Positions 17,551 through 54,050 of a DNA stretch of 64,000 nt are shown here, in pieces (within the stretch, counting starts at the first letter, position 1; each line of letters starts with the position of its first letter). This stretch comes from Raillietiella orientalis (lineage: Eukaryota). Under the pieces are notes generated by a model. The model was given only the letters and a program-made list of their open reading frames with translations, made no database searches and was not told where the DNA came from. Where the stretch lies: NCBI GenBank assembly GCA_036172245.1, contig JAYWIR010000044.1, positions 1,054,001-1,118,000 on the forward strand, written 5' to 3'. The position numbers were made by a program, and so were the translations under genes.

Positions 17551-17744
17551 CCGTTACCTCGTGCCACTGATGGCGCTCTCACGAAGTGCGCGGGCGCGCC
17601 AACGCTCGCTCCGGAACTCTACCCGAACGAGGACGGGGGAAGGGCGAAGAGCACCTGCCCCAGGAGAGGCCGAACAAGAGATCGCGGGGGCGACCGACGG
17701 ATCGGGAGACTCGTCGAGCTCTCTGGAGGCAAAGCGCGAGAGTT

Positions 17745-18700: not shown

Positions 18701-20489
18701 GGGCAGGGAGGGTAGGAGAGCGAGAGGGGTGGTGGCTCCTGCGTAACGGGGCAAGGGCTAGCCAATATCGCCACCTGACGAGTTTCATCGGGAAGACGCT
18801 CTCAAGCGTCGCGGCTCCAAGGGAAGGAACGGAAGGCTGACACCAAGATCCTTTCCCTTAGGTGCTTTCCGTGTGACCCTGAGAGCCTGTAGATGGCGCG
18901 CTCAGGGTCTCGCCTTTCGCGCGCCTTCCTTCCCAGAGTGACCCGATGGTACGCCCGCTCGGGGCACCTCGCGTGCGCACATCAACGATCCGAGCCATCT
19001 GCCGGAGGCCGCAAAAGCGGGCCGGGGATTTCCGGGACAGCCCGCGTTCTCGTTTGAGTGTTACCCCTCCTTCCCCCGTTTCGCCCCCTCCGGGACGCCG
19101 ATCCTCGTCCTTCCATCTTTTTTTCTCCGCCGCCGCTCTCGAGAAAGAGGACGTCCTCCGAGGAGTCCCCGAGGCTGCGGTTGGTGGAAACCTCGTGTTG
19201 AAGCACCCGCCAACGTCGCAACGGAGTGCTGGCGTTGGCGGGTGAGTGACAATGGCCGATGGTGATGACGACAATGATATAGAGACGACGATGATGATGA
19301 TAATGAGGAGGAGGAGGAAGGGGGACAAAGGCCCCCGGAGCTGCTGAAGGATTGACGAGCACTCCAGGCGGCTGTCCCTGAGGGAGGACGGAGACCTCCT
19401 TGAAAGGAGGCGGGGTCGCTCGTGTACAAAGTGGCCGGGGCGGAGATGGCCACTCCTCAACGGCGCACGTTCCGGGATCGGCGCTCACGATGGCACTTCT
19501 GGGCACTTCCTGGCTGAGGCAATCCTGGAGTCTGTTCCCGTGGACATCCCCGGATGAGCTCTTGTTTGCCTTCCTGGAGGAGAAACACGACGACGCCGAA
19601 AAGCTTTTAACCGAAATGCGGTCTGCTCGGGTTTTTCGTTTTTCTCTTCCCCTCCTCTTCTCCTTTGACCAGCAGTCCCGGAGGAGCTTTCCAGAATATC
19701 GCTCAAAGACTCTCGAATGGCCTTCAAGAGGCACTTACGAGGAGCAAACAGATCCGCGTATACGCACGTGCCAGCCACTTCCGACGAAGGCGAAGTTCAA
19801 GCCGCGAGGGTTCCGCAGAGGTCCAGACTCTGCGGCTGCCTTTCCGATCTTCGCGCGTCATCCCTCTGAGGTTCCAGGCGCCACCGGAAGCGCGGCGCAC
19901 ATCCCCGAAGGCGATTCCGGCGAGACGAGGCGCTCGTCTCCGGAGGTCTCCGGAGACTTTCCTGATAGGGGTTGCCCCGCAGGACTGCAGAGGTGGAAGC
20001 CTGCGGAGCCTTTGCTGCCTCTGGAGGGTTGCGGGGCCAAAGTCTCGCGGGGAGGCAAGTGCGAAGGGAGGCGGGACACCCGTTACTAGAGGGCGCGTTC
20101 CCGAAACCGCATGGGCTCCCCACGCACACGCCGCGGACTCTGTGCCTGGTGGCGGGCTCGAACTGATACGGAGGCAGGGAGAGATCGTTTCCTGTTTCCA
20201 GGCAACAACCGGGCGAGCAGCCTGCAGTCCCTCCAAAACCACACGAGTTGCACGGGTGGTCATGTCGAGTCGATGCACTTGTGACCCCTGACCGCCCATC
20301 TGATATCAAGAGGGCATGCCTTCATGGACCCTAAAGCCAAGGCGGAGATCGTGAGAACTCGGGTCGCCGGGCAGGGAAACGTGAACCTTGGAAGGAAACG
20401 CCTGCCCGCTAGCTTGCCCACCTGCCCGAGATTGCCCATCTGCCCGCAGGCCTGCCCATCTGCTTGCAAGGTTGCTCTGCTTGGAAAAA

Positions 20490-21810
20490 AATTTATTCCA
20501 TTTTATTTTTTTCTCGTTTTTTTCGGGTTTTTCTTTTTCCTTGCTTCGATGAGTGCCGAAAAACCATTCGCCTCCTTGAGGACCTCAAGAAGCTCTTTGA
20601 CACGAAGGTGCGTGCAACTTTTTAAGTTATGGGCGGCACACCGGGGGAAACCACCCTAAGGAACCAGGGAGGAAGGAGTCCGTTCCTCTTACGTTTGGAA
20701 GGAAACCTTAAAGGGTACCTCCGCCGTGGCTGCTCTCCAAGGAACCACGAAGAAAACCGCTTCCTTATTCTCTTTGAGGGATTGGAGTTGTTTCTCCTTT
20801 GAAGGGAACCTGGGAAGGATCCGCTCCTGGAATTTCCTCTCTGAAGGGAACCTTTGCAAGGAAACCATTCCTTATTTGATCCTCTGAAGAGACCCCCGAA
20901 TGAGCTCATCCCAATTTCTCTGAAGGGTCGCTCCCCGGAGGGAGCAGCATTCTTGAAGAGGCGTCAGTCAACCAGCTCCGTGGTGTGGCTCCATTTTCGC
21001 AAAAGGAGATCCCGAACGGTTCTTGAATTCTTGGAAGGACCCCGGAGAGTCCACTTCAAATCCAAGTCAGTCAACGAGGTCATCCTGTTTCCAGATTCCA
21101 AGAGTGCCGCACCTCCTAGTGAACTGTGTTGTCCTCCGACCCCTTTGGGGACGCTTCACCACTACCCTTGGAATTCCCGGCGACAACGCCCGAGATGTTG
21201 TAAAGCTCCTCTTTCAGCGCGATGCCCTCACGCCAGCCGCAGCCCCAAGCAGCACTTTGCTGCCTACGCGGGATCGTGGCTGCATGGAGCTCCGCCAGGG
21301 GAGGCCAGAACGACAGAGACGCCATCTACTTTGTTATCTTCTCCATGAGGATAGAGTCAAGATGACCCCATCTGGGAATATTACTCGCCGTCAGGAACTT
21401 GCCGGCATCCTTAGAGGGATGCAGAGCGACACCCTCCAGAACACAGTGATCCCTTCCCAAACCCCTTCATTTTTTCACTGGATTTTCCGTTTTTCTTTTT
21501 TTCTTTCTTGTTTGTTCCCTCTCGTCCCTTCTGCTGCCGAGGCAAACCCTACTGGACTGCATTCCGGTTCTCGGCAGGTTCCCATGGTTACATTTGCAGC
21601 GTGGAAGGACGAAGAGTTCTGCCACTGATCTGTATGCTTATTTTTTATATGAATGAACGCCCAAGCGCAACCAAATGTCAAACCAGAGTCTTTCCAAGAG
21701 GTGAACTCGAAACCCACGACTCACCCACTTCTCAGCATCGATTTTTTTGCGGGCTGGATTCGAACCCGTAACGCTCCGCACAGCGGACGGAGATCGCAGC
21801 CGCGCGGCCG
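20490..21810 (-). mobile_element. SINE-like repeat copy interrupted by a LINE fragment (21105-21685)
   Basis: Shared blocks GCGTCAGTCAACCAGCTCCGTGGTG..GCTCCATTTTCG, GGAAGGACCC, and GGATTCGAACCCG at ~21756. Confidence 0.7.
21105..21685 (+). mobile_element. Short 3' copy of the L1/Tx1-like family inserted in the SINE-like repeat
   Basis: HLLVNCVVLRPLW zinc-finger tail; nucleotide similarity to 39147-39708; hairpin at 21601-21625; ends AAACCA. Confidence 0.78.
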
Positions 21811-22099
21811 CCGACTCGGGCTCGAGAAATTTTCTCTTTTGCTGCTGACGACGCCCGGAGTCCCAGAAGCGGCTGGGAGGCTGCTTCTTCTTCTGTGCGG
21901 CCGATCCGATGCATCCGCACTGATTGATGTGCCCGAAACTCAGGTTCAACGTCTCCTTCCGCGCCCACGGAGCGAGAGCGGAGTCCCGGTTCTCTCAAGC
22001 AGACGAATGTGGGACCCAACAGGAATCCAAGGGTCAAAAGAGAGAATGAGAGCAAAAAAACACAGAATGAGAAGGAACAACAGAAAAAAAACTCGCCTT

Positions 22100-24450
22100 C
22101 TTTTCCTGCCTCGATCTCCAGACTCCGTTTATTTCATGAGCGGAGGGATCGCACAGGATGAAAGGGGACGTGATGTTTGCGCTTACCGCTATCTTGTCTC
22201 GTGAGTATTAGGTTATGCTCTCATTTCCGGAAGTCCACTGCCCAGTGGGCACCGGTCTCTCTTAGACGCCGATTGAACCAACGTTTCCTTCGTCTGGAGG
22301 ATGTCCTGATCGATGGATACCACAGCCAGCTGCTTCCCAGGTTTCCGATGCCAAAACATTGCGACGACGAAAAGTAGCAGCTCTGTTCCTTGAGTAGACA
22401 GAGGAATTGCATGGGATAAACGAGCGAAGATTGCCCACCGCCTTCACTCGGCGGTCCATCTCGACCCGTCCAGATTTCGCTCTTGCATCATTTTCCCAAA
22501 TCCTCCATTCGCATCCGCTCCCACTGCTGGACCTCGATGTTCTCGGCGTTTCCTTCATCGGGATGATGTCTCGACCGATGGGTCCAGTTCGTATGGCGGT
22601 CACTTTGCGGCACCTTATTTTGTCAAGATGCAGCTAGCGAACGGAGAGGAAGGAATCACTGGAACTGTTGCGTCTGTCTTTCACTTTCAACAGCCAGCTC
22701 GCGTAGGCGCCATCGGTTCATCCATCGAGACTCCAAGAGCAGCGATAGCTGCAAATACAAGCGACGTGCGAAAGACGCAGCTCTGTCAACGATTGGGTGG
22801 CAAAGGTCTCAACGGTCTCGAAAGCAGCTTTCCACAGAATAGCTGACTAAGAAATACCAACGGCGTGTGAAGGAAGCAGCCGTTTATCGCATCGGACGAA
22901 CGGTTCCAAATTCTCCACCATCTTCATTTCCCTCTCATCTCCACTTCCCTTCCGTATCAGGCGATGGCGTCCATATTCCATAAATGCTCAGTTCGCTCCG
23001 CACCCGCTGGAGCCAGTTCTTCTTGGCGTCAACGTTCCCGACGTTTTCTTCATCGGCAAGATGTCCCGAGCGATGGATGCCCCCTGCGGCCGCGTTGGAT
23101 GAGACATCTCGTTTCTCGAAGATTTCACAGCCACGAGATCTCTAGCCTTCGCAACGACTCCCCATCGTGGGGATCCCACGACCTTGGAAACACAGCTGCT
23201 GGGATCCCTCCGTTGATGCAGAAAGGCAGCGGGTCTTTGCGTGTGGTCTGCTTCCTTCCCGGCGCCCTTCCGAGAGTCCTCAAGGTGGTATCGAAGGAGC
23301 AGGCGGCGTCCGGGAAGACCATCCCTGTTGCTTTGTTCAGGAACGGGAGGGAGCTCAATCCAGCGATGAACTCATGTTACTTCCCTGCTGCCTTCCACCG
23401 CACACCTGAACCGGTGAAGAGTGCGCCGCGTCGCCGGATGCCCAGGAGAGAGTGGCCGAGATGCGGAGCCTCCCCTCCGACTTGAGATCTTCCGCAGCTG
23501 CGAGTCCAGCGTGGGATGAGCAGTCCCTGTGACCAGGAAGCCGCTGAGCCTCGTAGTGGCAGCAGCACGGGTGATCCTGGAATCCGGCAGCCGGAGGCAA
23601 CCCAGGAAGCGAGGAGATGGCATCGCGAATGAGCCAATGATGGAAGATCCGCGCTGCATCATTGGCGGCCGACCAGGAGTGGGGGCAGCATAGGGGTGGT
23701 ACATCAAAGAGATGAGGGTGAACGACACACGTCCGCTGTCACCATCAGCAGGAGACATGACAAGTTGCTGCAGTTTTTCGCAGCCCCCCGCGGGGCTCGG
23801 CAACCTCGGATCCAGACGAGGGCACGGCTGGCGCTTCTGCGCAGTGCAGTGCGCGACGTGGCTTTTTCCTTGGTCTTTTTCTCTCGTCAAAGAGTGCCGC
23901 TCCTCTCTGCGCTGAAGATCGTGGGCTCGACGCCAGCTTGGGTTTCACGGTTGCAGCGAGAGCACCGCCTCCGGAGAGAGCCTTCCGGCTATCCTCCTGC
24001 AAACGGGCATCTCGCTTCCGAAGCGGCGAATGCGCGCCATCCTGTTTCGTTTTCGGGCACTTTGGAGATTGCGCTGGTGTTCGCAGGTCCGGGCGGATGG
24101 TTTGTTTGCCCGTGGGAGCCACAAAGCGTGTAGCAGAGTCGCACATCCCACTTCGGCAACACCCTGGAACTCTGTGGGCTGCAGCCAGCTGCCTAGCCAA
24201 GGGTGGTCGGATGAAAGCCATCGATTCAAAGAGGATCTTCGGCACCCTTCCTTACCCTTGTTCCTCGAAGCCCATCACCGAGCTAATGGGCTCCATTTTC
24301 AGGCGTCGAAGAGGAAAATACTCGATCCTTTGAAGCAACTCGCGATTGCCCCAGCCTTTGCATGCGGAGCACTTCGATGTTCTCTTCGTGGTGGAAACGC
24401 GGAGATAATTCCTTCCGCTTCTCGCGCGTAAGAGAAAGTTGGAAGTGATA
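22100..24450 (+). mobile_element. Helitron relic(s), Rep C-terminal region to helicase start
   Basis: VASVFHFQQP, AIAANTSD, SLPYQAM..HKC, RFLHRQD, SPSAGD..LLQFF..RGA, in the expected order. Confidence 0.5.
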
Positions 24451-28100: not shown

Positions 28101-28959
28101 CAGAGATGTTGACCGCTAGTGGCTGGTGCGGGCCATCCAGAGTGGATGAAGAAACGCCACGCTCTCGAGTCAGCAGCACCGACGATCAGAAAGAGAAGGC
28201 GTCCAGGGAGCGAACATGGAGGAGAATCCCTTGACCGACCTTTGGCGGACCACTTTCAAAGATCCTGGGTGCAAAGTCCCAAGGGGAAGAAGCCCCAAGG
28301 GGAGAAGACTGTCCGCCTTAGGGCTTCTTCTTTCTTCGATTCGCAGATTGTGAAGTCGCTCATGATGCGTGACCCTGCCCTCTGTGCCCTGGAGCGCGCA
28401 CCAGCGATGACTCCGGCTGGCATTGAGGGAGCTGCGGAGCATAAGAACAGTCTCTAGGCCGCATCCTCAGCCGGCGAGTGGGGAAACGAATCCACGGTCG
28501 CGACGGACCGGTGACGAACATCGGGTGGTCTCTGGGGGTCGACAGCCGTCAGTCGCGCCGGTTCCGGGAACGGAATCAAAGTTCGAGGAAGACGCCGGTG
28601 CTTCAGGGTTACGGAAAGAGGACGAGTCTTTCCCTGGTGAGCCTTCGTCAGCGGTACCCGGAGAGGCAAGAAAGAAGGGAGAGGGACGAAGTGGAGAGGA
28701 CGAAGAGTCTTGCTCCGAAGGGGACGCCTGAGACCCTGATGGCAACCGCCTAGGGATGGAGAAAATGTGCAGTGCTGAGAACCTTCCAAGAACGGCACGT
28801 TGTAGACGACTCTTCCGGGCATGAGACAGTCGATCGTCCTTCTATGGGAATCGAGCTGGACGTCCAGCTGAAGAGAAGAGCCGCGTTGGCAGACGCTCTC
28901 CTTGAAAAGAGCAGCGCGCTTCTTACACTCTGGAAAGGCAACCACCCTCCGAGGAAAGT

Positions 28960-29260
28960 ACCAACCAGCTGCATGGCACGCAATGGACGGCTCCATTTGC
29001 ACAACCGGATTGGAACCCCGAAAAGCTCCCTGATTTCTGGAAAGACCCTGGAGGGTCGACTTCCTATCCCGGATAGCCAACGACGCATCCCGTTTCCGAC
29101 TTCCACCAATGCCGCCGCACTTGAAACCAACCGAGGTCAACCAGCGTCATCTTGCGGGGAGGACTCGAAATCCCCGAAGCAGTCCGTGTTCTCGACATCG
29201 ATCCTCCAAGTGAGGATTCGAACCCGTAACGCTCTGTGCCATGCCCGAGGACCCCAGCCA
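28960..29260 (-). mobile_element. Partial SINE-like copy (head portion, no LINE insertion)
   Basis: GGCTCCATTT..GGAAAGACCCTGGAG..GTTTCCGACTTCCA..GGTCAACCAGCGTCATC..GGATTCGAACCCGTAACG, collinear with the other copies. Confidence 0.65.
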
Positions 29261-29339
29261 CAAGGCTGCCAGCGCGTCTGTTGAGCTGGACGTCCAGCCC
29301 AAGAGACATCCGGGAGACAGACGCGAGGGTTCCAGCTGC

Positions 29340-31640: not shown

Positions 31641-31667
31641 GGGACTGATTCGGTGGAGTGGCCTGCA

Positions 31668-34600
31668 TGGTTTATCACCCAGTCACACCGAAGCGTTTAT
31701 CATAAAAAATAGTAAATAAACACATGTGTAGGGCCATCGGCCCTACATTGTCCGAAAATGCTCGGAACCTGCCGAGTAACCGGCACGCAGGCCGGCGAGG
31801 TTCGCCTTGGCAGCGGAGCGGGAAAAGGAAAACAAAATTAAAAATGAAACAAAAAAATACATACTAAAGGATTGAGAAGGTTCGGGAACGGATCACTGGG
31901 TGCTGGAGGACGTCCTCTGCATTCTTTCCAGGATGCCGGCAAGTTCCATTCGAGTATGCTCCAGGTGAGGCCATTTAGCTGCCGTCCTCATGGAGCTCAG
32001 GGCGGAGCAGATGGAGTCCCTATCGTGCCGTCCCCCTCTTGCTGGCCCTGGGCTGCCGCGATCACTCACAGGCAACAGCAAAGAGCTTCTGAGGATACGG
32101 CAGGCGAAAGGGCATCGCGCACGAAGAGGCGCCCCTGGGATTGTCCGTCGGTGCGCCAAGGGCCGTTGCATAACGCAACCACAAGCTTAAGAGCATGAGA
32201 AAGAAAATGAGGAGAATCGAGATCATTTGTTACTGGAGAAGGGGGATTGTCATCTTCAGAACGAGAACGATGGTGTAACACAGCAGATTCGTCTACGTAT
32301 TTCGACAAAAAAGCCTTTAGTCCCCGAGTAGGCATGAATTCATCTAGAATGCGACTTGTGTCACAAACACTGTATGCACCATCTCGAATACTAACCAATT
32401 CCTCTGTCCTCATCTGCACATCAATGCAGTAAATGGCACAGAAGGAAAGGCGAACATGCAACAGAGACAAAGGCAGCACACTGAACAAATGGTGGCAACC
32501 TCTGCATTAGGCTGCTGACTGGTAGAACACTACCTCCTAATTGCACAAAACTGGGCAATTTGCTCAAGGAGAGCAATGGTGCATAAGTGCTATCCGATAA
32601 ATACATGATATCAGAAGTGCAATTCAACAAAGCTTCAAGATAAGTTCTCATCATGCAATGAGGATTAGAGAGAGGAGAACCTCCATTAGTTCCTAAGTGT
32701 AATCGATAACTACCGTCTGCATCCCATGTGAATGTTACTGTACATTCTAATTGAGCACCATAAGCCACTGTCAGCTTTTTATAATTATAAACCTTAATAG
32801 AGGGACTATTAGATTGGCAAATAGCTGGCAGTTGCAAAACTAAATGAAATGAATGGCACATAGCTGCCCCAATCAGCTAGGAAGGAGTTCACTACTTTGA
32901 CAGGATCATTCATATCATACACCAAATTCACAGGAATACGGGATTCTCGATGCAAAATGACTGCCAGTTAGTTAGACGCCGAAGGGTAACACAGCTTACA
33001 AACAGGTGAGGGAGCTGTGATTCTCGTTCCCCGCTCCTGCCACAGTTCGGATTTACAGCCCTTCGGGTCCAGTGAGACCGGCAGCCGTTCTACGGGAGAC
33101 TCCAGTGCAACAGCAGAAGTGCCGACTCCCGTCACTTCAGGGGGAGGGCCTGACTGTTCTTCAGCTCTGTGGGCCACTCGAGGTCTTCCCGTGGGATTCC
33201 CAGCAGCTCACTGCAGCGCAATAGTCCTATCGGTGGTGCACTTGCGGTTGCAGCGTCCGTGAGCTGCCCTGTGGTCCGACCACCTAATTCCTTTACCCGA
33301 AGACGTACTTCGCAACTGCCCTGCGATTTGGCCGGCTGGTTGCTGCCCAGTTGCTCCCTGTGGGAGGGCAGTGCCGCGGCTAGGGAGGTTCTTTGCGCCC
33401 ACGCACACATGGTGGGGCCGCACGATGACGTCCTGCAGCGAACGGTTGTTGTAGAAGGAGCACAGCAGTCGTTGCCGAATCTCCAGAATCGCTTCGTTGT
33501 CCATGACCCACGTGCAGACGGCTTCCTGCAACCAGGTGCTACCTTTCGCGGGCCGGCAGAAGATCCAGTTGTTGGCCCTGTTAGCTTGGTCACAGGTTGG
33601 AGCTTTAGTCCCCATGTGGACACGTTGCATCTGCGCCGCCGCGCCAGGAGCGAAGACGACCGGTGGCTCGCTTGACCAGGTATCGTGCGGGATGCACCAG
33701 TCTGTGCTCCATGACTTCGCCTCTAGGGCGAGTGTCGTGCACTGGAGCTGTGACTCCAGGCGCTCCAGCGTCAGGAGGCCCAAGACCTCCGTCGCGATGC
33801 GCAGCGCACAAGCCCTTCAGGCGGACTCGGGACCTGCCTGTGCCTCACAGAGTGATTCTCAGGGGGTTCTTCATCAGCTGTTTTTACTTCTCGGTGGGAA
33901 AGCAGGGGGTGGAAGAGGAGGGTCACTAACGTGTTCCCCACCGCGGCCCGTTTCGGCAAGAGAAAATTGTCATCCTTGAACGGGCTGATTGCCGACTCTG
34001 CCTTCTGGAGGCAACTGAACCGCGCCTTCACAGGGAGATTGCCCCCCAACGGTACACTGAGGTACTTAAAGCACCGAACTGTGGGGATCCCCAAGAGGAT
34101 CCAGTCCAGCTGCCCTGCATACACCGAACCGACTGCTACCACGGACGATTTCGCCCTGTTCACCTACAGTCTTGTCCCGCAGGTTAACATCTTGAAGAAG
34201 TGTTCGAGCACCAACGCCGGGGTGGACATGGAGAGCAGCAGCAGGAGATCGCCCGCATATGCTGACATCACCGATATGGCTTGGTACGCGCGTGACAGGC
34301 GAGCCAGAGTTTTCTCTTACGCCCTCAGCACCAACTCGAAGTAGGTGCTGAAGAACAAGGGGTTCAGGCTGCCGCCCTGCCGTATCCCGCAGCGCACCAG
34401 TACACCGTACACGCTTTGTCCTCTGAAAGAAATCGTTAGCGCGTGGCGCCATCAGGAGCTCAGTAACGCCGTGAAAGAGATCGGGAAGCTCATGCGTTCC
34501 AGAAGCTCCAGAAGAAGCTCCTGGTCGACCTAGTCGAATGATTTGCGCAAGTCGACTGCGACCGCAAGGACCCTCACTCCCTCCTGACCATCCAGCTTAC

Positions 34601-35690
34601 CACCGGTGGGCGTCCCGGAATTCGAGATGCCGACCGTGTTCCCTTTCATTCGCTCTGCACCTCTGGAACTCGAACCAGGTGTTCACGAAGAGCAGATTGG
34701 CATCCATGCTCTTCCCGGGAAGCATAGGTCTGCTCCGTGCTAATCACGGTCTCTGTCACCCGCCCCAATCGCTACCATCACAGTTTCTCCAGCAACTTGG
34801 CGTCCGCGTTCAACATGGTGATCGGACGCCAGTTGCTGAGGTTCCTTAGGTATCCTCCCTTCGGGAGGAGACGCATCCCTGCTGATCGGAAGGAGGCGGG
34901 AACGTCGCTTATCTCCCGATTCATCAGGGTTAAGCGCTGCACCAGGAGGGTCAGCTCCATCGCGAAACATTGGAAGAACTCCGAGGGCAGGCCGTCCTCC
35001 CCTGGGGCCTTCCACCTCTTGAGCTTCCCGATTGCGGTGATGATTTCACCCATCGTGAAAGGCTCGTCAAGACGTTCTCTCTCCTCCTCACTCCTCCCCG
35101 AAAAGCAAGAGCCGAGAGATGCCCCGCTCTGGAGGAGCCCTAGCGTACAGGAAGAAGTAATAACTGCGCCGCAGGGTTCAAGTGCTCCTGACCTTCTTCG
35201 TCCAGCAGGCTGACCGACCTGGATTGCCAGGCTTGCCGCACAACCCCGGTTTTGTGCTTTGCCAGTCGGCGGATGTCTATCGGGTGTGGTGACAAGCCTG
35301 CAAATGCACTCTTTCGTTCCAAACACCCTCGCCGAGTCCTCTTAGAGACGGTCCAGGAGGAAATGCTCGCGGAACTCTCAGACCAAGACCTTCAAATCGT
35401 CCCATTCGTCGAGCTGCAAACTGCAACCTTGCAGGAACGCGCGGAGGTGTTCCGCGGCACCTGGCATTTTTGATCCAGTTCCTCGGAAGTCACCACGCCT
35501 AAGAAGGAGGAGGGTCCTCTGTCACGCGAAAGAATTTCAAGTTCCATTGGAACAGTGTTAAAGAGCTACGTGAGCCGCGAGGCACGCGACGGCTCTTGAG
35601 GTACTTAGGAACCTGCTTGCTGTGCCCCCCGAAGAACTCGTAGTCCGTTCCCTTTGCATGAACACCTTCGTGTTCCCGTTACGATGAAAA
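31668..35690 (-). mobile_element. L1/Tx1-like non-LTR retrotransposon, longest copy: end of endonuclease, RT, C-terminal region and 3' UTR; inactive; interrupted by MED14 fragment
   Basis: ORF 34778-35326: LDEPFTMGEIITAI..KAPGEDGLPSEFF..LLPKGG..NWRPITMLNADAKLLEK; downstream VDLRKSFD*VD, GIRQGGSLNPLFF, AYAGD (decayed YADD), VNRAKS, FKYLSVPL, RDGGLGL; several stops and frameshifts. Confidence 0.9.
32190..32967 (-). pseudogene. MED14: Mediator subunit 14 internal fragment, frameshifted, no introns seen, embedded in a LINE copy
   Basis: Translation VVNSFLADW / IKVYNYKKLTVAYG / NPHCMMRTYLEALLN / STYAPLLSLSKLP / LVSIRDGAYS..DEFMPTRGLKAFLSKYVDESAV..RSRSEDDNPPSP matches the recalled animal MED14 segment; frame changes at ~32868 (G run) and ~32487; no start or terminal exons. 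Confidence 0.88.
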
Positions 35691-35694
35691 TAAG

Positions 35695-36345
35695 ATGTTC
35701 GGCTGTTTCTGCACCGGGGATCCCAGTGCAAGCAGCTCGGACGAGTTTCCGGTTTCCGGGGAAGTTGACTCCTTGTACTGTTCCAGGTGCAGGGCAATAG
35801 AATCGCTTCCACGCCTCCTGTTGAACTGCAGTGCCCTAAAGGACTTGTGGTGGAGACTCATTCCGTCGACCGCAGGACGATGCCACGGACTTGCTGCGAC
35901 GCTTCTTCACAGAAAGCGGACTGGAGAAGGGAGCTGTGATCGCAAAATCGGTTGGATCGCAAAATTGGATTTCGCAAAATCGGATGGCGCCACAGCGACA
36001 GCCCGCTACGTGTTGGAGTCATGTTTGCGGCGAAGAGAGGCCACCGGTATGGCAGCAGCCCTCATGAGGACAGCAGCAAGGCGGTCTCATCTGTCAGAAG
36101 AAGTCAACGAGGAGCTCGCCACCATTAACAGCCGCTTTTAAAGAGGAAGGAACATCTTTAACCAAAGATCCCTCTCAACACCCTCCCGCCTTTTTTTATT
36201 TCTTTGTTATCCCCTCCCTCCATTCCTTACTTTTTGGAAGCCGGCCTGCGTGTCGGTGGTTATCCCGGACGATCTTTTTTTTTGGCATTGTGAATACTTT
36301 TCCACTCTTACTGGTGGCTTACTTTGTGTTTTTAAGAATAAACGT
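35695..36345 (+). mobile_element. 3' end of a second, different LINE family
   Basis: YCSRCRAIESLPRLLLNCSALKDLW resembles the C-terminal CCHC finger; stop at 36141, T-rich UTR, AATAAA at ~36337. Confidence 0.55.
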
Positions 36346-37464: not shown

Positions 37465-39880
37465 ATGGATCTTTTTTCTTTTTCAGATTTTCCTCTTTTT
37501 AGTGGTTCGCCAGATGCTGAAGAAGGTGCTTAAGGGTAGCCCACGAAGCTTTTGGACGCTGTTCACGTACCCGAGGGTGCATGTGACTCTTCAAGTTGTA
37601 GGGGTGACCCCGAGGGACCACTCTATGGATCCAGGAAGGGCCCCGGAGGATGGAGTCTGTTCCTCTCTTACGCTTGATAGCAAAACTCCAAGGAAGCCTC
37701 TTGCTTATTCTCTCCGGAGGGACCCCCCGATTTGATGGCCATTCCTTGGTTCTTCCCAGAACAGAATCCGAATAGGATCCGCTGTTGGAATTTCTTCTCT
37801 AGAAGTAACCCTCAAGGGAACCACTCTTCGTTTTCTCTAAAAAGAATCACGAAGGGACGCTTCCCAATTTCCCTGAAGAAAGCTTTCCGAAGGAATCAGA
37901 GCGCTTCTTCAGACCCCGTAGAAGCGTCAGTCAACCAGCTCCGTGGTGCAGCTCCATTTTCGTAACCGGAGGCGACTCCCGAAAGGTTCTTGGATTCCTG
38001 GAAGGACCCTGGAGGATGCACTTTGAATCTCGATCAGTCAACAGGATCATCCGGTTTCTGACTTCCAACATTGCTGCCTGAGGATCCCCATGGTCCAATA
38101 CTTAAAGTACCTGGGCGTTCCGTTGGGAAAATTCTGCTCTGAAGAAGCACCGCGATCCAGCCGTCTTCAGAAATCACTGCAGACGCTCGCCCCGTTTGAA
38201 TGAGGCAGATTCCACCTGCCGGAACGGACCGCGGTGTGGAACACATCCGTGGACCCCCACATCCGCCCCCGTCGTCTTGTTTGTCCTCTACCATGCAGCA
38301 TCAGGAAGCGGACAAAGGACCTCCTCCGAATCGTCCTTTGAGTCAAAGGGAGACCCGGAGTCCTGCTGAAGGACTTCCGTGCCGAGACGGAGGCCTAGGA
38401 CTCTTGATGCTGGAGCGAATAGAGCTGCAACTCTAGTTTCGGACACTGGCCCTCATACCAAACCTCTGGAACACCACCTGGTGCCAACCTGCACGTCCTC
38501 TCGTCTAGCGAGCCACCGGCAGCCTGGGACTCGCCTCCTTCCTTGAGTGCCCTCCATGCAGTCTCATCCACTGCGGACTGCACCTTCGGCAGGTAGCCAC
38601 GCTGGCCAGGAAAAACGGATGGATCCCGTGCCGCCCCGCGAACGGTATTCCCTGGCTGCAAGTGGGCGAGGATCCAGGAGCCAAGCGCGGAACAGGTGCG
38701 ACGTTTCCTGTACGCGCGTAACAACAACTTCACGCTCCGGGAGTTCCTGGAGGATACCTCGAAGAGTGCATGGGCAAACAGAACCTCCTTTGCCGCCGCG
38801 CTGCCCTTCCTTAGAAAACACATGGGCCGCAGCCTCAAGGTTAGATGGGAGGTTACCGTGGGAACCTCCGGAAGGAGGAAAAGAATGGGGGAGTGGACGA
38901 TGGGCCAGCTCACCGACGCTGCCATCCCGAGTGCCCGACCTCGTGAACTTTTGCGCTGGGGCATGCTATTGGGTATTCCGGAGGAAGACCTGCAGTGGCC
39001 CCCGGTGCTCACGAACACCCGCGCGCTTCCCTTGAAGTGTCGGAAGTCGGCGTTGATGATGATGCACTGGAGTCTCTCGTCCCGCAACGCCCGCCGGCAT
39101 CTGTGTATCGAAACTGTGCAAGGTGAGGGGAGTGGGAATCCCTCCGGCACCTCCTAGTGGACGGTGTTGCACTCCGGCCTCTTTGAGAACGCTTTGCCGC
39201 GATCCTTGGAACCCCCGCTGGCCACGCCACGGACGTTTGAAGGCTCTTCTTCCCGAGAGACGCCCTTACGCCGGCAGACCGCATCCCTAGCAACACTATG
39301 CTGCCCTCTCAGCGGGATCGTAGCAGCATGGAGCAACACCAGAGGAGGCCATCTATTCTTGCTGTCCTCTTCATGAGGATGGCCCCAAGATGACCCCATC
39401 TGGGAGTCTTGAAACAGTCTTGAAATTGGCGGCATTCTTACGAAGATGCAGAGGACGCCCTCCAGCACACAGTCATCCCTTCCCGAACCCTCCCCGTTTT
39501 TTGACTGTATTTTTTTTATGTTTAATTTTTTCTTTTTGTTTGTCTCCCCTTCCCCTGTGCTGCCGAGTCGAACCCCGCTGGCCTGCGTTCCAGTTCCTGG
39601 CGGGTTCCTTCTCGTAGTTACAACTAACGCGGCAGGATCACACGTCCTGCCACAGACGTGTATGTTTATTTTATACATAAACGCTTCGGCATGACCAGGT
39701 ATAAAGCAGTGCCGCACACGAATAGGCCAATCAGCGCCATCCTGCGGTGGGAACTTGAAAACCACGACTCACTCATTTCTCAGCATCCATCCTTCCGCGG
39801 ACGGGATTCGAACCCGCAACGTTTGATACCATGCGTTGAGGCCGCAGTCATGCGGCAGTCCTCGGAGAGCAGTCGCAGCC
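37465..39880 (-). mobile_element. SINE-like repeat copy interrupted by a LINE fragment (38079-39708)
   Basis: Same blocks as 20640-21100 at 37600-38075; GGGATTCGAACCCGC at ~39803 (perfect B box on the minus strand). Confidence 0.7.
38079..39708 (+). mobile_element. 1.6 kb 5'-truncated copy of the L1/Tx1-like family inserted in the SINE-like repeat
   Basis: LKYLGVPLG, RDGGLGLLMLERIELQL, LLRWGMLLGIPEEDLQWPP, 3' UTR with hairpin at 39631-39651, ends AAAGCA. Confidence 0.85.
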
Positions 39881-43834: not shown

Positions 43835-44547
43835 GCAACAGGGAACGATACCGTTCCCTTCAAACGTTCCTTCCAGGATCTCCATCTTTGTTTCCGTCTG
43901 CCGGCCGGTCACCGCCTTCAGCTTTGTCCAACCCTGGAGCAGGTGGGACTCGCTGCCCGACGCTGCGTTTCCGAATCTCCGCAGACCTTGCAGAGCACGT
44001 CTTGGTTGTCGCATGTCCGATACTTCCTTCCTTCCTTCCAGGATTTCCCCATGGTAATACGTCTGGAGGTCATCTCGACTGTACGCGGTAGGTCGCTCCT
44101 CCGTACCGTTGGGCGAGCAGTTTCATGTTCCGGATCACCTAGAGATCCCGCAGACCTTGTCGGGTGTGTCATCCTGTTTCCGTTTCCCTTCATTCAATCG
44201 CGGATGTTAGCTCTGGTGATCAGGCGCCTTCGTGTTTCCAGATCTCGCGAGTCCTGTGGCTGAACCTTCTCATCATTTTCGTGACGCGGAGATGCAACCG
44301 CGTTTTGGGGCAGCTGAAACTCGTGACGAACTGTTAGCAAGTCATTCGCGGATGGTCATTCGTGGTTTCTGGAGCATCCATTGTCTGATCTCCGGAGGGA
44401 CCCTTATGAAATAAGTAATCACCATGGTGACTTCCTCCTAACGCAGTTCTTTGGCACCTTGGCACCATCTTGAGTAGGCTTTCCGCACGGATTTGCCAGG
44501 GAGTTCATCATTGAAACAACAACAGAAGACGTGTTCAGTAGCAATAG
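43835..44547. repeat. ~710-bp near-identical direct repeat, copy 2
   Basis: Offset 27722 from 16113-16825. Confidence 0.95.
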
Positions 44548-45340
44548 TGCTAGAACACTTGGTTCTCCCACGTGCTTGAAACTTGCCACGACCGTTACCT
44601 TGACCAGCGAAGTCCGTTTCCACGGAAAAGGAAAAACCGAAAAAGCAAACAAACAAAAAAAAGAGAAAGAGTTTTGGGGGAGGGAGGATGGAAAAGTCGC
44701 CGACACATGTCGCTGGGAGACGCCTTCTGCATCCTATCCAGGATGCTGACAAGTTCTATTGTGGGTTCACCCAGGTGGGGTCATCTCGGGGCATTCTTCA
44801 GAAAGGTCCGCGGCCAGTGGATGGCGTCTCTTCCATTTCGGCCTCTTCTTCTGGCGTTCCAGACCTTCGCGATCGTGCGAAGACAGCGGAGATCCAAGAG
44901 GGACGTGACTGGTGGTGGCAGTGAGGCACCACGCATGAAGAGGCATCTGAAAATGTCCCTGTGGCCGCCACTGGGATTCCTAGGATCGTCGAGAGACGAT
45001 GTGAAAAGGGTCGGAGGGCTCCAGCAAGAGGTGCAGTAAGGTCTCCTCCTCGCCGCACTTTCCACAACTGGCATTGGCATCGCAGTAGCAGCGTCCGCTA
45101 ACTGCCGAGTTGTCCACGTGCTCAGAAGTTTTTCCCTGTCTTCGGTGCGACGGGGCACCTTCAGTCGGTGGGCGACCACCAGTACCTGTTTTTCTGTCTA
45201 CGTGGTATCGATGTTCCTCCCATCTCCGTGTTTGCCTATTAGAGCTGACATGAGGCTCGAGCTGTTGACCAGCTTCGAGTAGGCTCTGGGGGCTGCTCAA
45301 GGCCACGGGTCGTTTGCGAGATCCAGGCGCTATCGAGCGT
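44548..45340 (-). mobile_element. 3' copy of the L1/Tx1-like family; 44570-45020 is a near-identical inverted copy of 14010-14465
   Basis: ASCGKCGEEETLLHLLL zinc finger; LLSTWTTRQLADAA; matching ORF translations 13774-14457 vs 44572-45039. Confidence 0.78.
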
Positions 45341-48109: not shown

Positions 48110-48490
48110 CTTAGCAAGAGGTTCCACGTAAACAGGAAGGCTCCGGTGGAAGAAGTCCGTTCCTCCTTACGCTTGGTGGAGAACCCTGAAGGGAATTTCT
48201 TCCCTTTTATCTCCGGAGGGATCCTCGAAAGGGAGGCGCTCCTCATTTCTTCTCCGACGGGAACTCGAAAAGGATTCGCTCCTCGTTTCCTCCTCTGAAG
48301 AGAAGTCCGATGGGACGCATCCAGATTTATCCCCGAAGGGATCAGCGTGCTTCTTACACTCGGGAGAGACAACCCCCCGACGAGGGGAACCTGATCATGC
48401 TCTTTGATTCCTGGAGGGGCCCCGGAAGATCAAATTCCAATCCCGGCCAACCAAACGGGACCTTTGGTTTCCGGCTTCCAACCTTAGCCT
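48110..48490 (-). mobile_element. Partial SINE-like copy (subrepeat body) just 3' of ELP1
   Basis: GTCCGTTCCTCCTTACGCTTG, TCTCCGGAGGGATCC, GATTCCTGGAGGGGCCCCGGA, GTTTCCGGCTTCCAAC shared with the other copies. Confidence 0.6.
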
Positions 48491-48764: not shown

Positions 48765-51700
48765 TTATTCCAATCTCAGGATCTCCAGCGACCAGCGATC
48801 GCCGGGCGAGATCGCCGGCGGAAAACGACGCTCGGGCTCTGTGGGGAACACACTTTGAGCACCGACGCAAACATCGCCACCAACCTAAGAGCAGCCACCT
48901 GCTGCGCAAGTCCCTTCGGGCAGCGTCCTCCTCATCTTCGTCAACTTCCTGCAAAACAACGGTGCACCAAGCTAACCGGCACCACCCGACCTTCGACAGG
49001 GCTTCCTTCGGCCAAACCACTCCAACTTGCGCTCTCACGATCTGCAGCAGCTGCGCGTACAGTTCCTGCAGGTCCACGGCGCTCTCAAACACCCCAGCGA
49101 CGTACAAGGCGTGCAGAAGCTCGCAGACTTCCTCTTCAGGGCAGGCATCGAGGGCTCTTTCCGGCGGGCGACCAAGTCTTACCTCGCAGGCCCTCGGTTC
49201 GCGCGACCAACTGATGCAAAGACACCACCAGCGCCAGGTCCTCGGTGTGAGATCCTTCCCGCAGGCTCAACTTGGGGAACACGCTTTTCACCCTCCTTGA
49301 TCTCCGGGAGCTGCCGCTCGCCCTGCAATCGACGGTTGCCGTTGCGGCAATCGCGGAACGCGTGACGGTTAGTTACGAGCTTGCCGTGCTCGAGTCCGTG
49401 TCCGTCGTCTCCGACGCGTGGTCACAGGCATCCCCGTTCAGCGCTCGAACGCCGGCTCTTTGCGCACGCTGCTGCCTCACCACGCGCAGGCGATCGCACT
49501 GCTGCGTGAAAACCTCCCGCAACTTCTCGATTTCGTTCCTCACGCCTGCTACGTGAGACGTCAACGAGGGCAACAGGTATGCGTCTACGGAACAGGGAGA
49601 AACCACCCTGTCACGGAATGCTTTTCACGGTAGGAACCTGCAAAATTGTCGACGCCGTGCTGGCAAGCCACCCTCCGGGCGTCGCCGTACAATCTTCCCT
49701 TCAGGAGCGCGCCGATGGCACCACCAGCATCGTCCAGGTACTGTTCGTACAGCACGGCCGCATCCCTGTGCTTTCCGTTCAAATCCAACCGTTCCGCCAG
49801 TTGCCGGGCCAGCGAATCCACCTGGCTCTTCTCAAACTGATGCTGCTGGGCGGCTGACATCGCATCCTGCCAGGCATCCGCTTTGCAGAAGGCCGTGACG
49901 GCCTGCTCCGCATCCTTTGCACGAAGCAGCAGCAAACCTGCCTCCCTATACTGGCCCCTTCGCAGCAAATCGCGGGCCCACAGACGACATATTTCCTGGA
50001 AACAACAAGCATGCTGAAGTTGCACGGAGCAACGCAAACTCACTTCGTGCTCCGCGGTTTCAGCACCATATATGGCCATACCTTCCCCATACAAGCGCTG
50101 CTGCTCGATCAGCTTCCGGCATTCGGGCCAGTACTCTGCTCCGCAGGCAGCTAGGTGTTTCAAAGCAACGCGGTATCTCCCGAGATGTACATCAATGGCG
50201 TACTGGCGATATGGAGGACTGTGACTGAGTAGCTTTTCGAGGAAGGGCAAGTACTGCAAGGGATCCTGGTAACTCTGCTGCTGGGCCACCATCAATGCCA
50301 ATTCCACATGATATGTGCCCAGTGCTGCACGATACAGATTGCTGCCATCTATGCGCGTCAGCAAATGGTGTAAGGCAGCATCGCGACTGTGGGGCTGATC
50401 TGAACATCACTGGTATTGGTTTTCATGCAGCGCACTCATATACCTTGCACATCCAACAAGCACAGCAACGCATCTTCTAATCTCGATGGTTTTTCCTTCA
50501 CGTACGTTGTAATCAATGGTAACAACTGATGCTTTGCACCATCCAAACATTTCCTCACAGCCTGGCACAACTTGTTCACTTTATCTGTCACGTGATCTTC
50601 AACTCTATCCGTGTATGCCCATCGATAGATGGTCCGAGTTACGTCCTCATCACTGCATAAAGTTCAATGTCCGCTTTGCTATCAGCATCCACTCTTACCT
50701 GAATTCCTCCAAAAATGTGCAAAATGTGGTCACGTTTGTACTCAACTCTTCCACCATATGCTCCATGTTGGCAAATGCAACAGCTGGGTTGTGATCAATT
50801 AACAAATTGACATGCAACCTGTGGCGACGGATCATGCTCAATGCTTTGCTGTACTTTGGGGGATCGTGATTCAGCAGCTTGCTGATGCTCTCCAATAACA
50901 GCCACCTGGGACGCACCAACTCCAAATTGCCACGGGGCATCTGTAGCACACACGAGTCACTGGCTGACAGCACAAGTTCGCATCCTGCTTCCACTGCACG
51001 CTTTTCGCAAACACTATCCAACACTTCGCTAATCGAAGCACGAGAGCAGTTCAGCACTTTATGCAATAAACTGCTGTCCAGACGGATGCATAGCAACTGA
51101 TGACTGAGGGTAGTGGCGAGAATAAACGGTTCATTCACAACAAGGGTGGCAATGTTGCTCAGAAGCATTGTCTCATTGAAAAACAGGCGACCACAAGATG
51201 AGCGAGTGATCAACAAAGGTCCTCTCTCTGGTACAAAGGTAAGATGGCCATAGACACAGGCAACAGGCAATGTGAACCACAGGACACCATCCCAGAAAAC
51301 ACGCCCATCATGTGCTTGGAAAGCCTGATGCAAGACATCCCCATCGTATGAAGCACACAGGAGCACCACACAGGTGTCCTCTTCTTCCTGTCTAAAGCAG
51401 GAGGACAAGAAAATGAAACCAACTCGAATCACATCACAACCTGAGCAATGCTTTCCCCTTGTCTCTCTCCAGAATGACTTGCACGCGACGCCCTTCGCAG
51501 AGGGCAAGCAACACATCTTTCCCAGGCCAAACCAAGCAGTACAACAAAGAAGGAGGCACTTCAGCCAGTTGCAGACAGCAGGACAAGTGGTGCAGCTGAA
51601 GAAATGATGGCATTTCACACAACACTTGAGTGCCTGCTCCCACTGCATTCTGCTCCTCAGCTATCATGCAATGCACATTGGAATATCACTCCGTTCCCCC

Positions 51701-54050
51701 TTCCTCACTTAATTCGTAAATACGTATGGTTCCAAGATCATCAACCACCAGCAGTTCTCCCTGAGGACCGAAAACCATACTATTCATGCTGGGAGCTTTC
51801 TTCAAACTGTACATAGCTAAGGGAGGAGGAAGCAGCGCTCCCAACAGAGGAGAAATCAGGATCTGTTCTTAGGAATCACCAGATCATAAAGCATGCTCTG
51901 CAAAGTGTCTCCCCTGCTTACCACCATCCACAACAGCAACATGGCCTTGTTTGCTGTGGCAGAAGGACCAGTGGAATTCGTACCTTTGCCAACACCCTGT
52001 CTTCCTTACAACGCAAACGCAGTTTTCTTTCAGAGGGTCCCAGTCGCAACACAGGATATCATCAGCACCTTCCCATTTGCAATACCAATGCCCGTTGCTG
52101 TGCGACCACACTTGTGGCTGGCTGAGGCCAGTTTTCCAGCATTCCAACCAAACCAGCATCAAGCTGCCACTCAAATTCCACCTCAACTCCCGCACCTGAT
52201 CATCCATCTCTTTCGACGGACCACAAATGCTAATGCACTGACCATGCTGCTGCAGTCTCGCACCCCAAGATGGAAATTGGAATAAGGAAGGCCATTTTGC
52301 TCCACGGTCACGATTTTCACTCCGGAAGGACCATGCTGGCTTGTTGTCAGCAGAGTGCTTTGCCCCTTCCAGGACAGAGACTGACCCAAGTATGCAATCG
52401 GAGCTGCCACGTACAAAAGAGCCCCTTCTCGACTGTACGTTCTTATTGTTCGGCTTGCTGCTATTTGTTAAAGAACTGCTCATCTCTTTGTATACTTACA
52501 GGATGTGGGATCCACAAAACTTAAGCCAATCATTAGGCCATCTGCACGCCATGTCACACGAGACAGCAGGTCATCGTGCTCCTGCACTGGAGTGCTTTCT
52601 TCGGATGCGGCCTGAGCTGCCTGCTTCCCCTTCTTCCCATGAAATTGTGTACTTTTGCTTCCCCAGCCCACAGAAACAGGGCGACCTGGAATCAGTGGTC
52701 ATTCTCTCCCATATAGCATGTCTACCTGGCTTGATTTCTGGATCCAAAAGATACTGTTCAAAAAGCACATCAAAATCGGCTGTCATCAGCAAGAAATAGC
52801 GATGTAAGGTAACCAAGGCAAGGAGCTCCTGATCAGGGCTCCACGCCACTGTTTCCATTCCTGCATTTACATTCCCAACACACCTAAGCTAAGTAAGGTT
52901 CATGTTAAGAGGTAATAAAATTGAAGAGATGTCAGAGATTTGAAGAGTACACAAAGCCATGCTATTTTCGTTAGATACAGCTTCCAGCAAAAATTTACTG
53001 CATTTATAAAACTACAAATGAATTGTTGATACTGAGCATCAAATCCATCGATAACATTTATAGTTCTTTTGATACAATACTTATTTAAAAAATCAGATTA
53101 TATAAATTGATTCCGTCTACAGCATTCAGAACTTAATGAAATTTGGCGCACATAACTTTGAAGATAACAAAACTTGCAATCTCAGCAAGTTAATGTTACC
53201 AGATACCAAACTATGGTTATATATTCCCACCATCACAGCAATCTAAGCAGCAGTATGAAACATGAGACTATACTCAAAAGCAAGAGTATACACAAACTAA
53301 ACATCACTTTCCTTCATCATGGGGCATGAAAAAATGATAAACAGTGCCAAGAATAAAAATGAAGCAAATTATGGCAATTTATATGAACATGCTATTACCA
53401 TTGGGAGACTGACCACAAACATAAATAATGGTTTTCCTGAAAGGAAGAAATGACACTGAAAGTGATACAGTTGATGTGGATTATGAATATGAAAGAATGA
53501 AGGTTTGATTTGAATTTCCATGAAGTCCATATCTGGACAAAAGTTCAGATCAAGAAACATTCCTTTAGCATCCATATGAAGAATACTATTTTTAAAATAT
53601 TAGTGTCTCAATGTAGTCCGTATGAATTTCATTCAAGTAAGCATTGATGTTATCTCCTAGTATTTCATTTCAGAAAGGCACATTTTTCTGATAAATTGGC
53701 CTCACTTATCCAATGCTTGCATGATATATTAAAAACACAGAAAACAAATCAACACTCACTTGCTCTACGTTGAAATCGTAGAGAAACAGTTCACCTTGCT
53801 TGAAACAAACACATAATGCATTGGCGGCCCAAATGTAGGTGATGTCAATTGCTACACCTACTTCATGTTCACTTTCAAATGTACAACAGTGATTTGTGGT
53901 GGATGGCCTGTTTGTAATATTAATGTAGTAAAGATCTGGACCTTTTGTAAAATATAATCGGCTCAATGTTTCAATGAAACAGAGCTTATCCACTGATGAT
54001 AAGAATGCATTTTTAACTGAATGTATGGCTTTCACCACGGGGTTCTTCAT
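48765..54050 (-). CDS. ELP1: Elongator complex protein 1 (IKI3/IKBKAP family), 16 exons, ~1251 aa, apparently intact
   Basis: Family motifs: LRCVGNVNAGMETVAWSPDQELL, VGWGSKSTQFHG, VTWRADG, SNGHWYCK, VAVVDG..LLPPP, VLQMPRGNLELVRPR, LLIDHNP, DEDVTRTIY, ALGTYHVELALMVAQQQSYQDPLQYLPFL, SLREGSHTEDLAL, C-terminal FPP..RWSLEIL. Exons with GT-AG introns: 54050-53760, 52888-52726, 52685-52500, 52460-52243, 52195-51922, 51867-51709, 51660-51441, 51391-50699, 50652-50444, 50399-50044, 49995-49638, 49584-49377, 49322-49183, 49133-48991, 48948-48899, 48852-48765; total 3756 nt, in frame; stop TAA overlaps an AATAAA. Confidence 0.95.

Follow-up and report, generated by a model that had tools for sequence, protein, structure and literature searches.

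Why would two copies of one dispersed repeat be interrupted at the same point by pieces of the same retrotransposon? This question is raised by a 64,000-nucleotide stretch of Raillietiella orientalis DNA (assembly GCA_036172245.1, contig JAYWIR010000044.1, positions 1,054,001 to 1,118,000), which is called the window here and to which all coordinates refer. The window is eukaryotic nuclear DNA with 52% G+C, and self-BLAST shows that its part from 12 to 45 kb consists mostly of nested, decayed retroelements. A repeat of ~0.8 kb resembling a short interspersed nuclear element (SINE) is split in two of its copies, A and B, by fragments of a long interspersed nuclear element (LINE). Our tentative answer, to which we give slightly less than an even chance, is that the LINE inserted twice, independently, at a preferred and non-exclusive site of the SINE. 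The anatomy and junctions of the filled copies, their empty paralogues and the group of the LINE are shown below; we infer both the independence and the preference.

Two SINE-like copies are split at the same point

Self-BLAST, profile searches and alignments of the filled copies confirm that 5'-truncated fragments of one LINE subfamily interrupt two SINE copies, in antisense, at a common point (TGCCGCAC). The LINE profile was made from three copies of a ~590-bp 3' module, and the SINE profile was run with nhmmer. The profile search finds five copies of the SINE-like repeat in the window, all in one orientation. A preliminary description, made from the letters alone, had reported two SINE-like copies with same-orientation LINE inserts of 0.58 and 1.63 kb at these coordinates and with 5' junctions within a few bases of each other, and both observations were reproduced. 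The SINE copies and the two inserts are as follows.

17743-18707, minus strand: SINE copy S1, uninterrupted (profile positions 17-806; site at ~18550-18566)
20509-21112, minus strand: SINE copy A, body and tail left of the insert (profile positions 6-644, E 8e-185; ends ...GAGTGCCGCAC)
21109/21113-21686, plus strand: LINE insert A, the 0.58 kb 3' module (first 4-6 nucleotides (nt), CCGCAC, common to the SINE; ends ...GTCAAACCAG)
21102-21686, plus strand: LINE 3' module A as matched by the profile (positions 3-596) and alignment
21687-21829, minus strand: SINE copy A, head side (from alignments; GGATTCGAACCCG at 21756)
28895-29275, minus strand: SINE copy S3, short and uninterrupted (profile positions 445-798; site TGCCGCCGCAC at 29110-29120)
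37466-38078, minus strand: SINE copy B, body and A-rich tail (T-rich on the plus strand), left of the insert (profile positions 2-645, E 4e-186; alignment with A and S1)
38079-39709, plus strand: LINE insert B, 1.63 kb (3' module match 39131-39710; tblastn with the related database protein P0002, residues 382-577)
39710-39872, minus strand: SINE copy B, head side (profile positions 631-805; starts TGCCGCAC; tRNA-like segment 39793-39867)
48124-48482, minus strand: SINE copy S5, headless (profile positions 166-634)

The SINE profile matches of copy B span 37466-38080 and 39704-39872, and the match on the head side of copy A spans 21664-21829. Both LINE inserts are on the plus strand and the SINE head is on the minus strand, so the inserts run antisense to the repeat. 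Within the SINE, the two 5' junctions are 0-4 nt apart, copy B ending ...ATTGCTGCC| and copy A ending ...GAGTGCCGCAC|, and the insertion site is ~155 nt from the start of the tRNA-like head.

In copy B, the left part of the SINE stops at 38078 and the right part begins at 39710, with 1,631 nt of LINE between them. This insert is 5'-truncated inside the C-terminal part of the reverse transcriptase (RT) (it starts ...RIPMVQYLKYLGVPLG) and reaches the LINE 3' terminus, ...TATAAAGCAG. The tetranucleotide TGCC is present on both sides of the insert (38075-38078 and 39710-39713; imperfectly TGCTGCC/TGCCGCA), and deleting one TGCC from copy B restores the sequence of the empty copy S3. A 151-nt contig of sequencing run X1 spans 38034-38184, across the 5' junction of copy B, with 0 differences. 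Run X1 was the only public run found (8% of sampled words) and may be the assembly's own source; it was aligned at a likeness of at least 80%, mostly as 151-nt contigs.

In copy A, the SINE reaches ...TGCCGCAC (21105-21112), and 4-6 nt at the 5' junction (CCGCAC/GCAC) are common to SINE and LINE. The LINE here starts at the equivalent of ~39145-39151 in B, and the LINE-side breakpoints of the two copies (38079 in B, the equivalent of ~39147 in A) thus differ by 1.07 kb. After the LINE, the SINE resumes ~28 nt deeper in copy A than in copy B, and A lacks the stretch (TGCCGCAC...CCAATCAGCG) that is still present in B. This loss lies between two similar 9-10-mers, GTCAAACCAG and a GGTCAACCAG-like segment. 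When the filled and empty copies are aligned, as the preliminary description had suggested, the TGCC duplication of B appears, and no short duplication is found around the insert of copy A. The SINE head segment that had been described after both inserts is likewise present in part: both copies continue with the right part of the SINE, and the AAYCAG motif reported for copy A is the LINE's own terminus (AAACCAG), ~28 nt of SINE being gone.

The two halves of the SINE are adjacent in S1 (17743-18707) and S3 (28895-29275). These uninterrupted copies, previously called empty alleles, are indeed empty, but as they occupy other loci they are paralogues and not alleles. The site is retained in four SINE copies, two filled and two empty; in S5, detectable homology stops ~10 profile positions before the site. 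We also considered whether a remnant of the LINE tail was already present in the empty sites, and rejected this, as p <= 0.05 was reached in 2 of 32 tail-versus-site alignments, which is chance level. Two further joints in run X1 were not counted. One, 29064->39137 (26 nt on the shorter side), is best explained as the locus of LINE copy C, described below, which is outside the stretch covered by the alignment of the run and would match by paralogy; the other, 39669->29135 (36 nt on the shorter side), is a possible further LINE-to-SINE junction whose middle is unread.

The continuation of the SINE on the far side of the inserts bears on template switching, in which the RT, after copying LINE RNA to a variable point, would have switched to an RNA of the left SINE part at its 3' end, as in U6-L1 chimeras. 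A constant end of the upstream partner, a variable LINE 5' point and a common strand, all seen here, are the known signature of such chimeras, which are described in PMC4494074 with citation of Buzdin 2002 and Garcia-Perez 2007. However, what follows both LINE pieces continues, in register, a SINE that is contiguous in S1 and S3, and no evidence was seen of a plus-sense RNA ending at TGCCGC. The in-register right flanks indicate that the LINE was inserted into a pre-existing unit, which rules out template switching in practice, and we consider it very improbable.

The inserted LINE and its relatives in the window

The RT domain is kept only in LINE copy D of the window (Pfam RVT_1, E 1.1e-09). 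Copy D has one close database relative, P0002, at 60% identity. P0002 matches human LINE-1 ORF2p chains at E ~1e-39, versus ~1e-17 or weaker for R2-type chains. This similarity supports assignment of the LINE to the L1/Tx1 group of non-LTR (long terminal repeat) retrotransposons by its predicted RT, at group level only, in agreement with the earlier label "L1/Tx1-like". We note that source names of the type "Transposon TX1..." among the relatives are automatic labels. Most full-length relatives, at ~30% identity, combine APE (PF03372) with RVT_1, and many also contain zf-RVT (PF13966).

Searching the window with the 3' module profile revealed eight module-length LINE copies, a tail fragment and an internal fragment. 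Those outside the two filled SINE copies are listed here.

12914-14556, plus strand: LINE copy G, 1.64 kb, of another subfamily, outside the SINE (3' module 13978-14556)
16018-15478, minus strand: LINE copy F, 3' module (profile)
16828-17409, minus strand: LINE copy C, 0.58 kb, of the A/B subfamily, outside any SINE
31667-35251, minus strand: LINE copy D, the longest, outside the SINE site (Pfam RVT_1, E 1.1e-09, and tblastn; 3' module 32184-31667)
36034-36208: LINE internal fragment (profile)
40767-40244, minus strand: LINE copy H, 3' module (profile)
41449-41401, minus strand: LINE tail fragment (profile)
45048-44477, minus strand: LINE copy I, 3' module (profile)

Pairwise identities place A, B and C in one subfamily (A-B 76.4%, A-C 74.5%, B-C 80.0%); D is next, F and H are further off, and G and I are a young pair with 94% identity. 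Copy C sits inside a LINE copy of another subfamily, and the 150 nt upstream of it are 83% identical to G and 70% to B. This upstream sequence identifies C as an independent insertion outside any SINE. Its 5' end is 3-12 nt from the equivalent of the 5' end of insert A, which indicates that the 0.58-kb LINE form exists independently of the SINE.

Two insertions or one copied composite

The same SINE-side breakpoint combined with LINE-side breakpoints 1.07 kb apart is the pattern given directly by two insertions at one target. A single LINE insertion could also account for both filled copies if the composite was copied to the other locus, by SINE retroposition with the LINE as a passenger or by ectopic gene conversion, and one copy later lost 1.07 kb of LINE and ~28 nt of SINE. 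We regard this as fairly unlikely. It needs no target specificity, and it accommodates the shared insert orientation, the shared SINE-side 5' junction and the position of the 28-nt loss in copy A between similar 9-10-mers (GTCAAACCAG and GGTCAACCAG-like). The identity between A and B is alike in the left SINE part (74.4%), the LINE (76.4%) and the right SINE part (71.4%), as a copied composite would also give.

The breakpoints argue against copying, as the deletion must start within ~4 nt of the SINE/LINE junction and must end ~3-12 nt from the 5' end of the independent copy C. In addition, the outer flanks of SINE copies A and B have no homology in self-BLAST. This excludes a segmental duplication and means that the composite itself must have transposed. 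A weak further objection is that the 1.63-kb insert contains four runs of at least T4 in the SINE sense, which stand against polymerase III read-through; the decayed SINE body has such runs too.

Comparison of LINE and SINE trees, which had been proposed as a check, does not decide the matter. With D as outgroup, the LINE quartet counts are 14 for AB, 11 for AC and 13 for BC, and do not unite A with B; if anything, the LINE of B is nearer to C than to A (80.0 versus 76.4%). Summed over the right SINE part and 330 nt at the end of the left one, the SINE quartets lean mildly to A+B (19 versus 11 and 11), as either a common origin or membership of one subfamily would give. The copies have all diverged to about the same degree (about 70-80%), which makes the trees nearly star-like. 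The idea in the preliminary description that one chimera was propagated and later internally deleted is weakened by the junction-exact deletion that it needs, by the start of copy C and by the sequences, in which neither LINE nor SINE pairs A with B clearly; the GCAC microhomology at the 21105 junction, on which it drew, is present.

Is there a preference for the SINE site?

All counts of LINE flanks come from nine 3' ends in this one 64-kb window. Two of the nine (22%) lie in the SINE, or two of three within the A/B/C subfamily. The 3' flanks of the other seven gave no match to the SINE (p < 0.02 in 0 of 28 comparisons).

Strictly sequence-specific LINEs have nearly all copies in one target, with a precise 3' junction. 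Strict site-specificity of the Tx1L/R1/R2/Keno type is not supported here, as two of nine ends are in the SINE and their 3' junctions are ~28 nt apart. The preliminary description had suggested that this family targets the SINE; in strict form the suggestion does not hold, given these ends and the two empty sites among the four retained, and a weaker position preference fits the data.

When nine LINE ends were placed at random in 200,000 simulations, two ends no more than 30 SINE positions apart and equally oriented arose with p = 0.0033, a post hoc value uncorrected for the selection of the window in the scan. Pure chance co-location is therefore unlikely for a single window. That two independent insertions met at one SINE position by coincidence, in the absence of any true preference, would nevertheless be favoured by the saturation of the region with nested LINEs (nine LINE 3' ends and five SINE copies in 64 kb); in ~7% of random placements, at least two LINE ends fall in SINEs. 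A p of 0.003 is also not rare across the ~250,000 windows scanned, from which this one was picked as interesting-looking, and the other LINE flanks have no common motif. We consider such a coincidence unlikely, since the simulated p comes from the 3' ends alone, to which are added the 5' junctions within 0-4 nt and the shared orientation.

Several results weigh against a preferred site and against two independent events. Seven of the nine LINE 3' ends are elsewhere, including one of the three in the same subfamily (C), and they share no flank motif. The 3' junctions of A and B are at different SINE bases, ~28 nt apart in the alignments, and in target-primed reverse transcription the 3' junctions should be the precise ones. 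For copy A, a deletion has accordingly to be assumed, either of the target at insertion or at a later time. The stretches in which the LINE terminus resembles the SINE are too short for significance (p <= 0.05 in 2 of 32 comparisons). No APE-coding stretch was found in the window by tblastn with 121 related proteins as queries, because all LINE copies are 5'-truncated. The mild lean of the SINE quartets and the even A-B identities, both given above, belong here as well. Finally, there are two events, picked post hoc from a very large scan.

Sequences from outside the window added no further filled copies. A 17-mer conserved in LINE A, B and C matched at least 118 loci in a metagenome scan, and among the matches listed 0 of 118 were LINE relatives by nhmmer, the matches being due to chance. 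A protein-guided scan with P0002 returned one unrelated RT from genome_contigs (26% identity, on a 1.8-kb contig) and no locus from viral_contigs, where a second DNA pattern gave 0 matches.

A possible route of insertion

We propose that two separate target-primed reverse-transcription events would have placed 5'-truncated copies of one LINE subfamily into two different, pre-existing SINE copies, at the same short site (TGCCGCAC) and both antisense. The recurrence would most likely reflect a non-exclusive insertion preference of the LINE for the SINE site. Short target duplications and junction microhomology are ordinary footprints of 5'-truncated L1-type insertion. In copy B, the SINE sense strand would have been nicked just before TGCC, 1.6 kb of LINE RNA reverse-transcribed, and the second strand broken 4 nt away. 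Copy A may have followed either of two routes. The nick may have been as in B, and 28 nt may have been lost afterwards from between two similar 9-10-mers, GTCAAACCAG at the LINE end and the GGTCAACCAG-type segment of the SINE. Alternatively, the nick may have been ~20-28 nt further, with the LINE RNA end paired to the GGTCAACCAG-type segment and the 5' side joined at the CCGCAC microhomology.

The cause of such a preference is a matter of speculation. It may be a nicking preference of the endonuclease, or annealing of the LINE RNA terminus ...GTCAAACCAG to GGTCAACCAG/GGCCAATCAG in the SINE, ~20 nt downstream of the site; the latter would also explain the in-register joining of the SINE in copy A. 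It is possible that a subfamily of the L1/Tx1 group has evolved a position- and orientation-specific preference for this SINE site, maybe aided by pairing of the LINE RNA ..GTCAAACCAG with the SINE segment just downstream of the nick, and we hold this more cautiously than the insertion reading itself.

Comparison with known systems

Multicopy targets of L1/Tx1-group elements include DNA transposons, small nuclear RNA, tRNA and 5S genes, and microsatellites. In PMC4494074, Tx1 families are described as preferring fixed positions, in fixed orientation, within other transposons. Examples given there are Tx1L in Tx1D, Tx1-Mar in Mariner-N4_AMi around positions 240 and 830, and Tx1-9_AMi ~300 bp into Harbinger elements; crocodilian Tx1 families prefer positions in Mariner, Harbinger or LTR elements, and insertions at Mariner position 240 are antisense to the host. 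The same text takes the presence of one sequence type in >20% of flanks as its criterion of target preference. Our two of nine (22%) would pass this criterion of PMC4494074, and nine ends from one window are far too few for it.

The locus resembles the target-preferring Tx1-clade LINEs of PMC4494074 in its L1/Tx1-group RT, in the recurrence of a single position and orientation antisense to the host, and in being non-exclusive. It differs from them in that the target is a tRNA-related SINE-like repeat, there are two events with 3' junctions ~28 nt apart, and the element is placed at the level of the L1/Tx1 group. Ordinary nested, 5'-truncated L1-type insertions share with it the 5' truncation, the short duplication (B), and the junction microhomology with target deletion (A). 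Unlike them, the two events share site and orientation, and the tail is without poly(A), with a hairpin-like CCGG..CCGG followed by ..GAAAC/AAACC. Composite retroposons, such as SVA-type elements and SINEs with LINE-derived parts, also contain a LINE-derived segment within a SINE-like unit, whereas here the LINE piece is internal and antisense and is not the 3' tail of the SINE, empty copies exist, and the insert lengths differ.

If the preference is true, a SINE joins the list of multicopy targets of L1/Tx1-group elements, in a lineage far from the animals where such targeting was described, and would serve as a "safe harbour" target for a LINE. It would also provide a natural pair (endonuclease or RNA tail, and a ~30-nt target) in which to study target choice by APE-type LINEs. 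If the filled copies are a copied composite or a coincidence, they represent ordinary nested-repeat decay of no wider interest. A narrow literature search found no target-specific non-LTR retrotransposon inserted into a SINE among the matches listed, which is not proof of novelty.

The SINE-like repeat

The repeat copies are 0.75-0.96 kb, which is long for a SINE. A tRNA-like head is at the right end, on the minus strand. The complement of a tRNA T-arm/B box, GGATTCGAACCCG, occurs in all four SINE heads (B-box-like GGTTCGAATCC; at 39804 in copy B). An Rfam tRNA-clan model matches one of the three heads tested (39793-39867, minus strand, 25.6 bits, E 0.0029), below the gathering threshold of 47. 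At default settings ARAGORN made no tRNA call, and at 90% thresholds (-ps90) it made four calls, two of which are heads A and B (head A at c[21745,21814]). No A box was recognised by eye in the heads. The earlier description of the repeat as tRNA-headed thus holds weakly. Alignment shows T-rich runs on the plus strand at the left end, which are A-rich in the SINE sense. Taken together, the repeat is plausibly a tRNA-derived element whose sense strand is the minus strand and whose A-rich tail forms the left end.

The tail of the SINE is not similar to that of the LINE (no LINE-profile match), and target-site duplications of the SINE copies are not clear, 7-mers being the only candidates. The outer flanks of the SINE copies are unrelated in self-BLAST, which points to dispersal by transposition and not by segmental duplication. 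All five copies have the same orientation within 31 kb (17743-48482), a mild bias (1 in 16 for a given strand). A small fragment of the SINE tail end is found at 35529-35611/35613 (minus strand, profile positions 42-133) and is 89% identical to S1 at 17766-17820. On the upstream side of LINE D, ~300 nt separate this fragment (35529-35611) from the 5' end of the LINE; the two are oriented to each other as SINE and LINE are in the filled copies, but the fragment is far from the insertion site. We considered LINE D as a further SINE-inserted copy and rejected it: its 3' flank is without significant SINE similarity, and the upstream fragment comes from the far end of the SINE.

Further features of the LINE copies and the window

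Eight of eight LINE tails contain a CCGG..CCGG hairpin-like segment, then ..GAAAC/AAACC, without poly(A), and have a ...GT-AAAMC-like terminus. None of the four predicted pairs of the hairpin shows a compensatory change, so covariation gives it no support.

Pfam detects no zf-RVT in LINE copies D or B. BLASTP aligns "NPNCGRSGERESQLPHLFVSC" of LINE D to the zf-RVT knuckle of P0003 at an E of only 6.5, and a C..C..E..H....C pattern is seen by eye in copies D and I. In copy I, an intact-looking zinc knuckle at 45020-45090 (minus strand) was read by eye as ...C.KCGEEETLLHLLL.., and, compared with G and B, ~190 nt are missing from the interior of this copy, directly upstream of the knuckle. LINE D contains ~0.8-0.9 kb of unrelated sequence at ~32190-33090, between the zinc-knuckle region and the 3' module. 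The GC content of this foreign part is 0.44, versus 0.54-0.59 in the LINE parts, and it is probably a later insertion.

The 5' ends of the LINE copies pair up: G starts ~65 nt upstream of the B-equivalent start, and C (17400-17409) starts 3-12 nt from A (21109-21113). These pairs may represent preferred truncation points or discrete short LINE forms.

A 713-bp segment is duplicated at 16113-16825 and 43835-44547 with 99.7% identity. It consists of the last ~73 nt of an I-type LINE tail and ~640 nt of the 3' flank of copy I, and at the first locus it fits exactly into the gap that separates the upstream part of F (16112) from the 3' end of C (16828). The segment looks like a recent, severely 5'-truncated retrocopy with a transduced 3' flank; if so, the G/I-type LINE was recently active.

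Beyond the repeats, Pfam identifies large exons of ELP1/IKI3 (Elongator subunit 1) at 49588-52495 on the minus strand. The best database relatives of this ELP1, from fungi, a nematode and an oomycete, are only ~30% identical, which suggests poor sampling of this organism. A segment of 966 bp is present in inverted duplicate at 1120-2084 and 22650-23615, with 98.6% identity, and this duplicate is much younger than the LINE and SINE copies.

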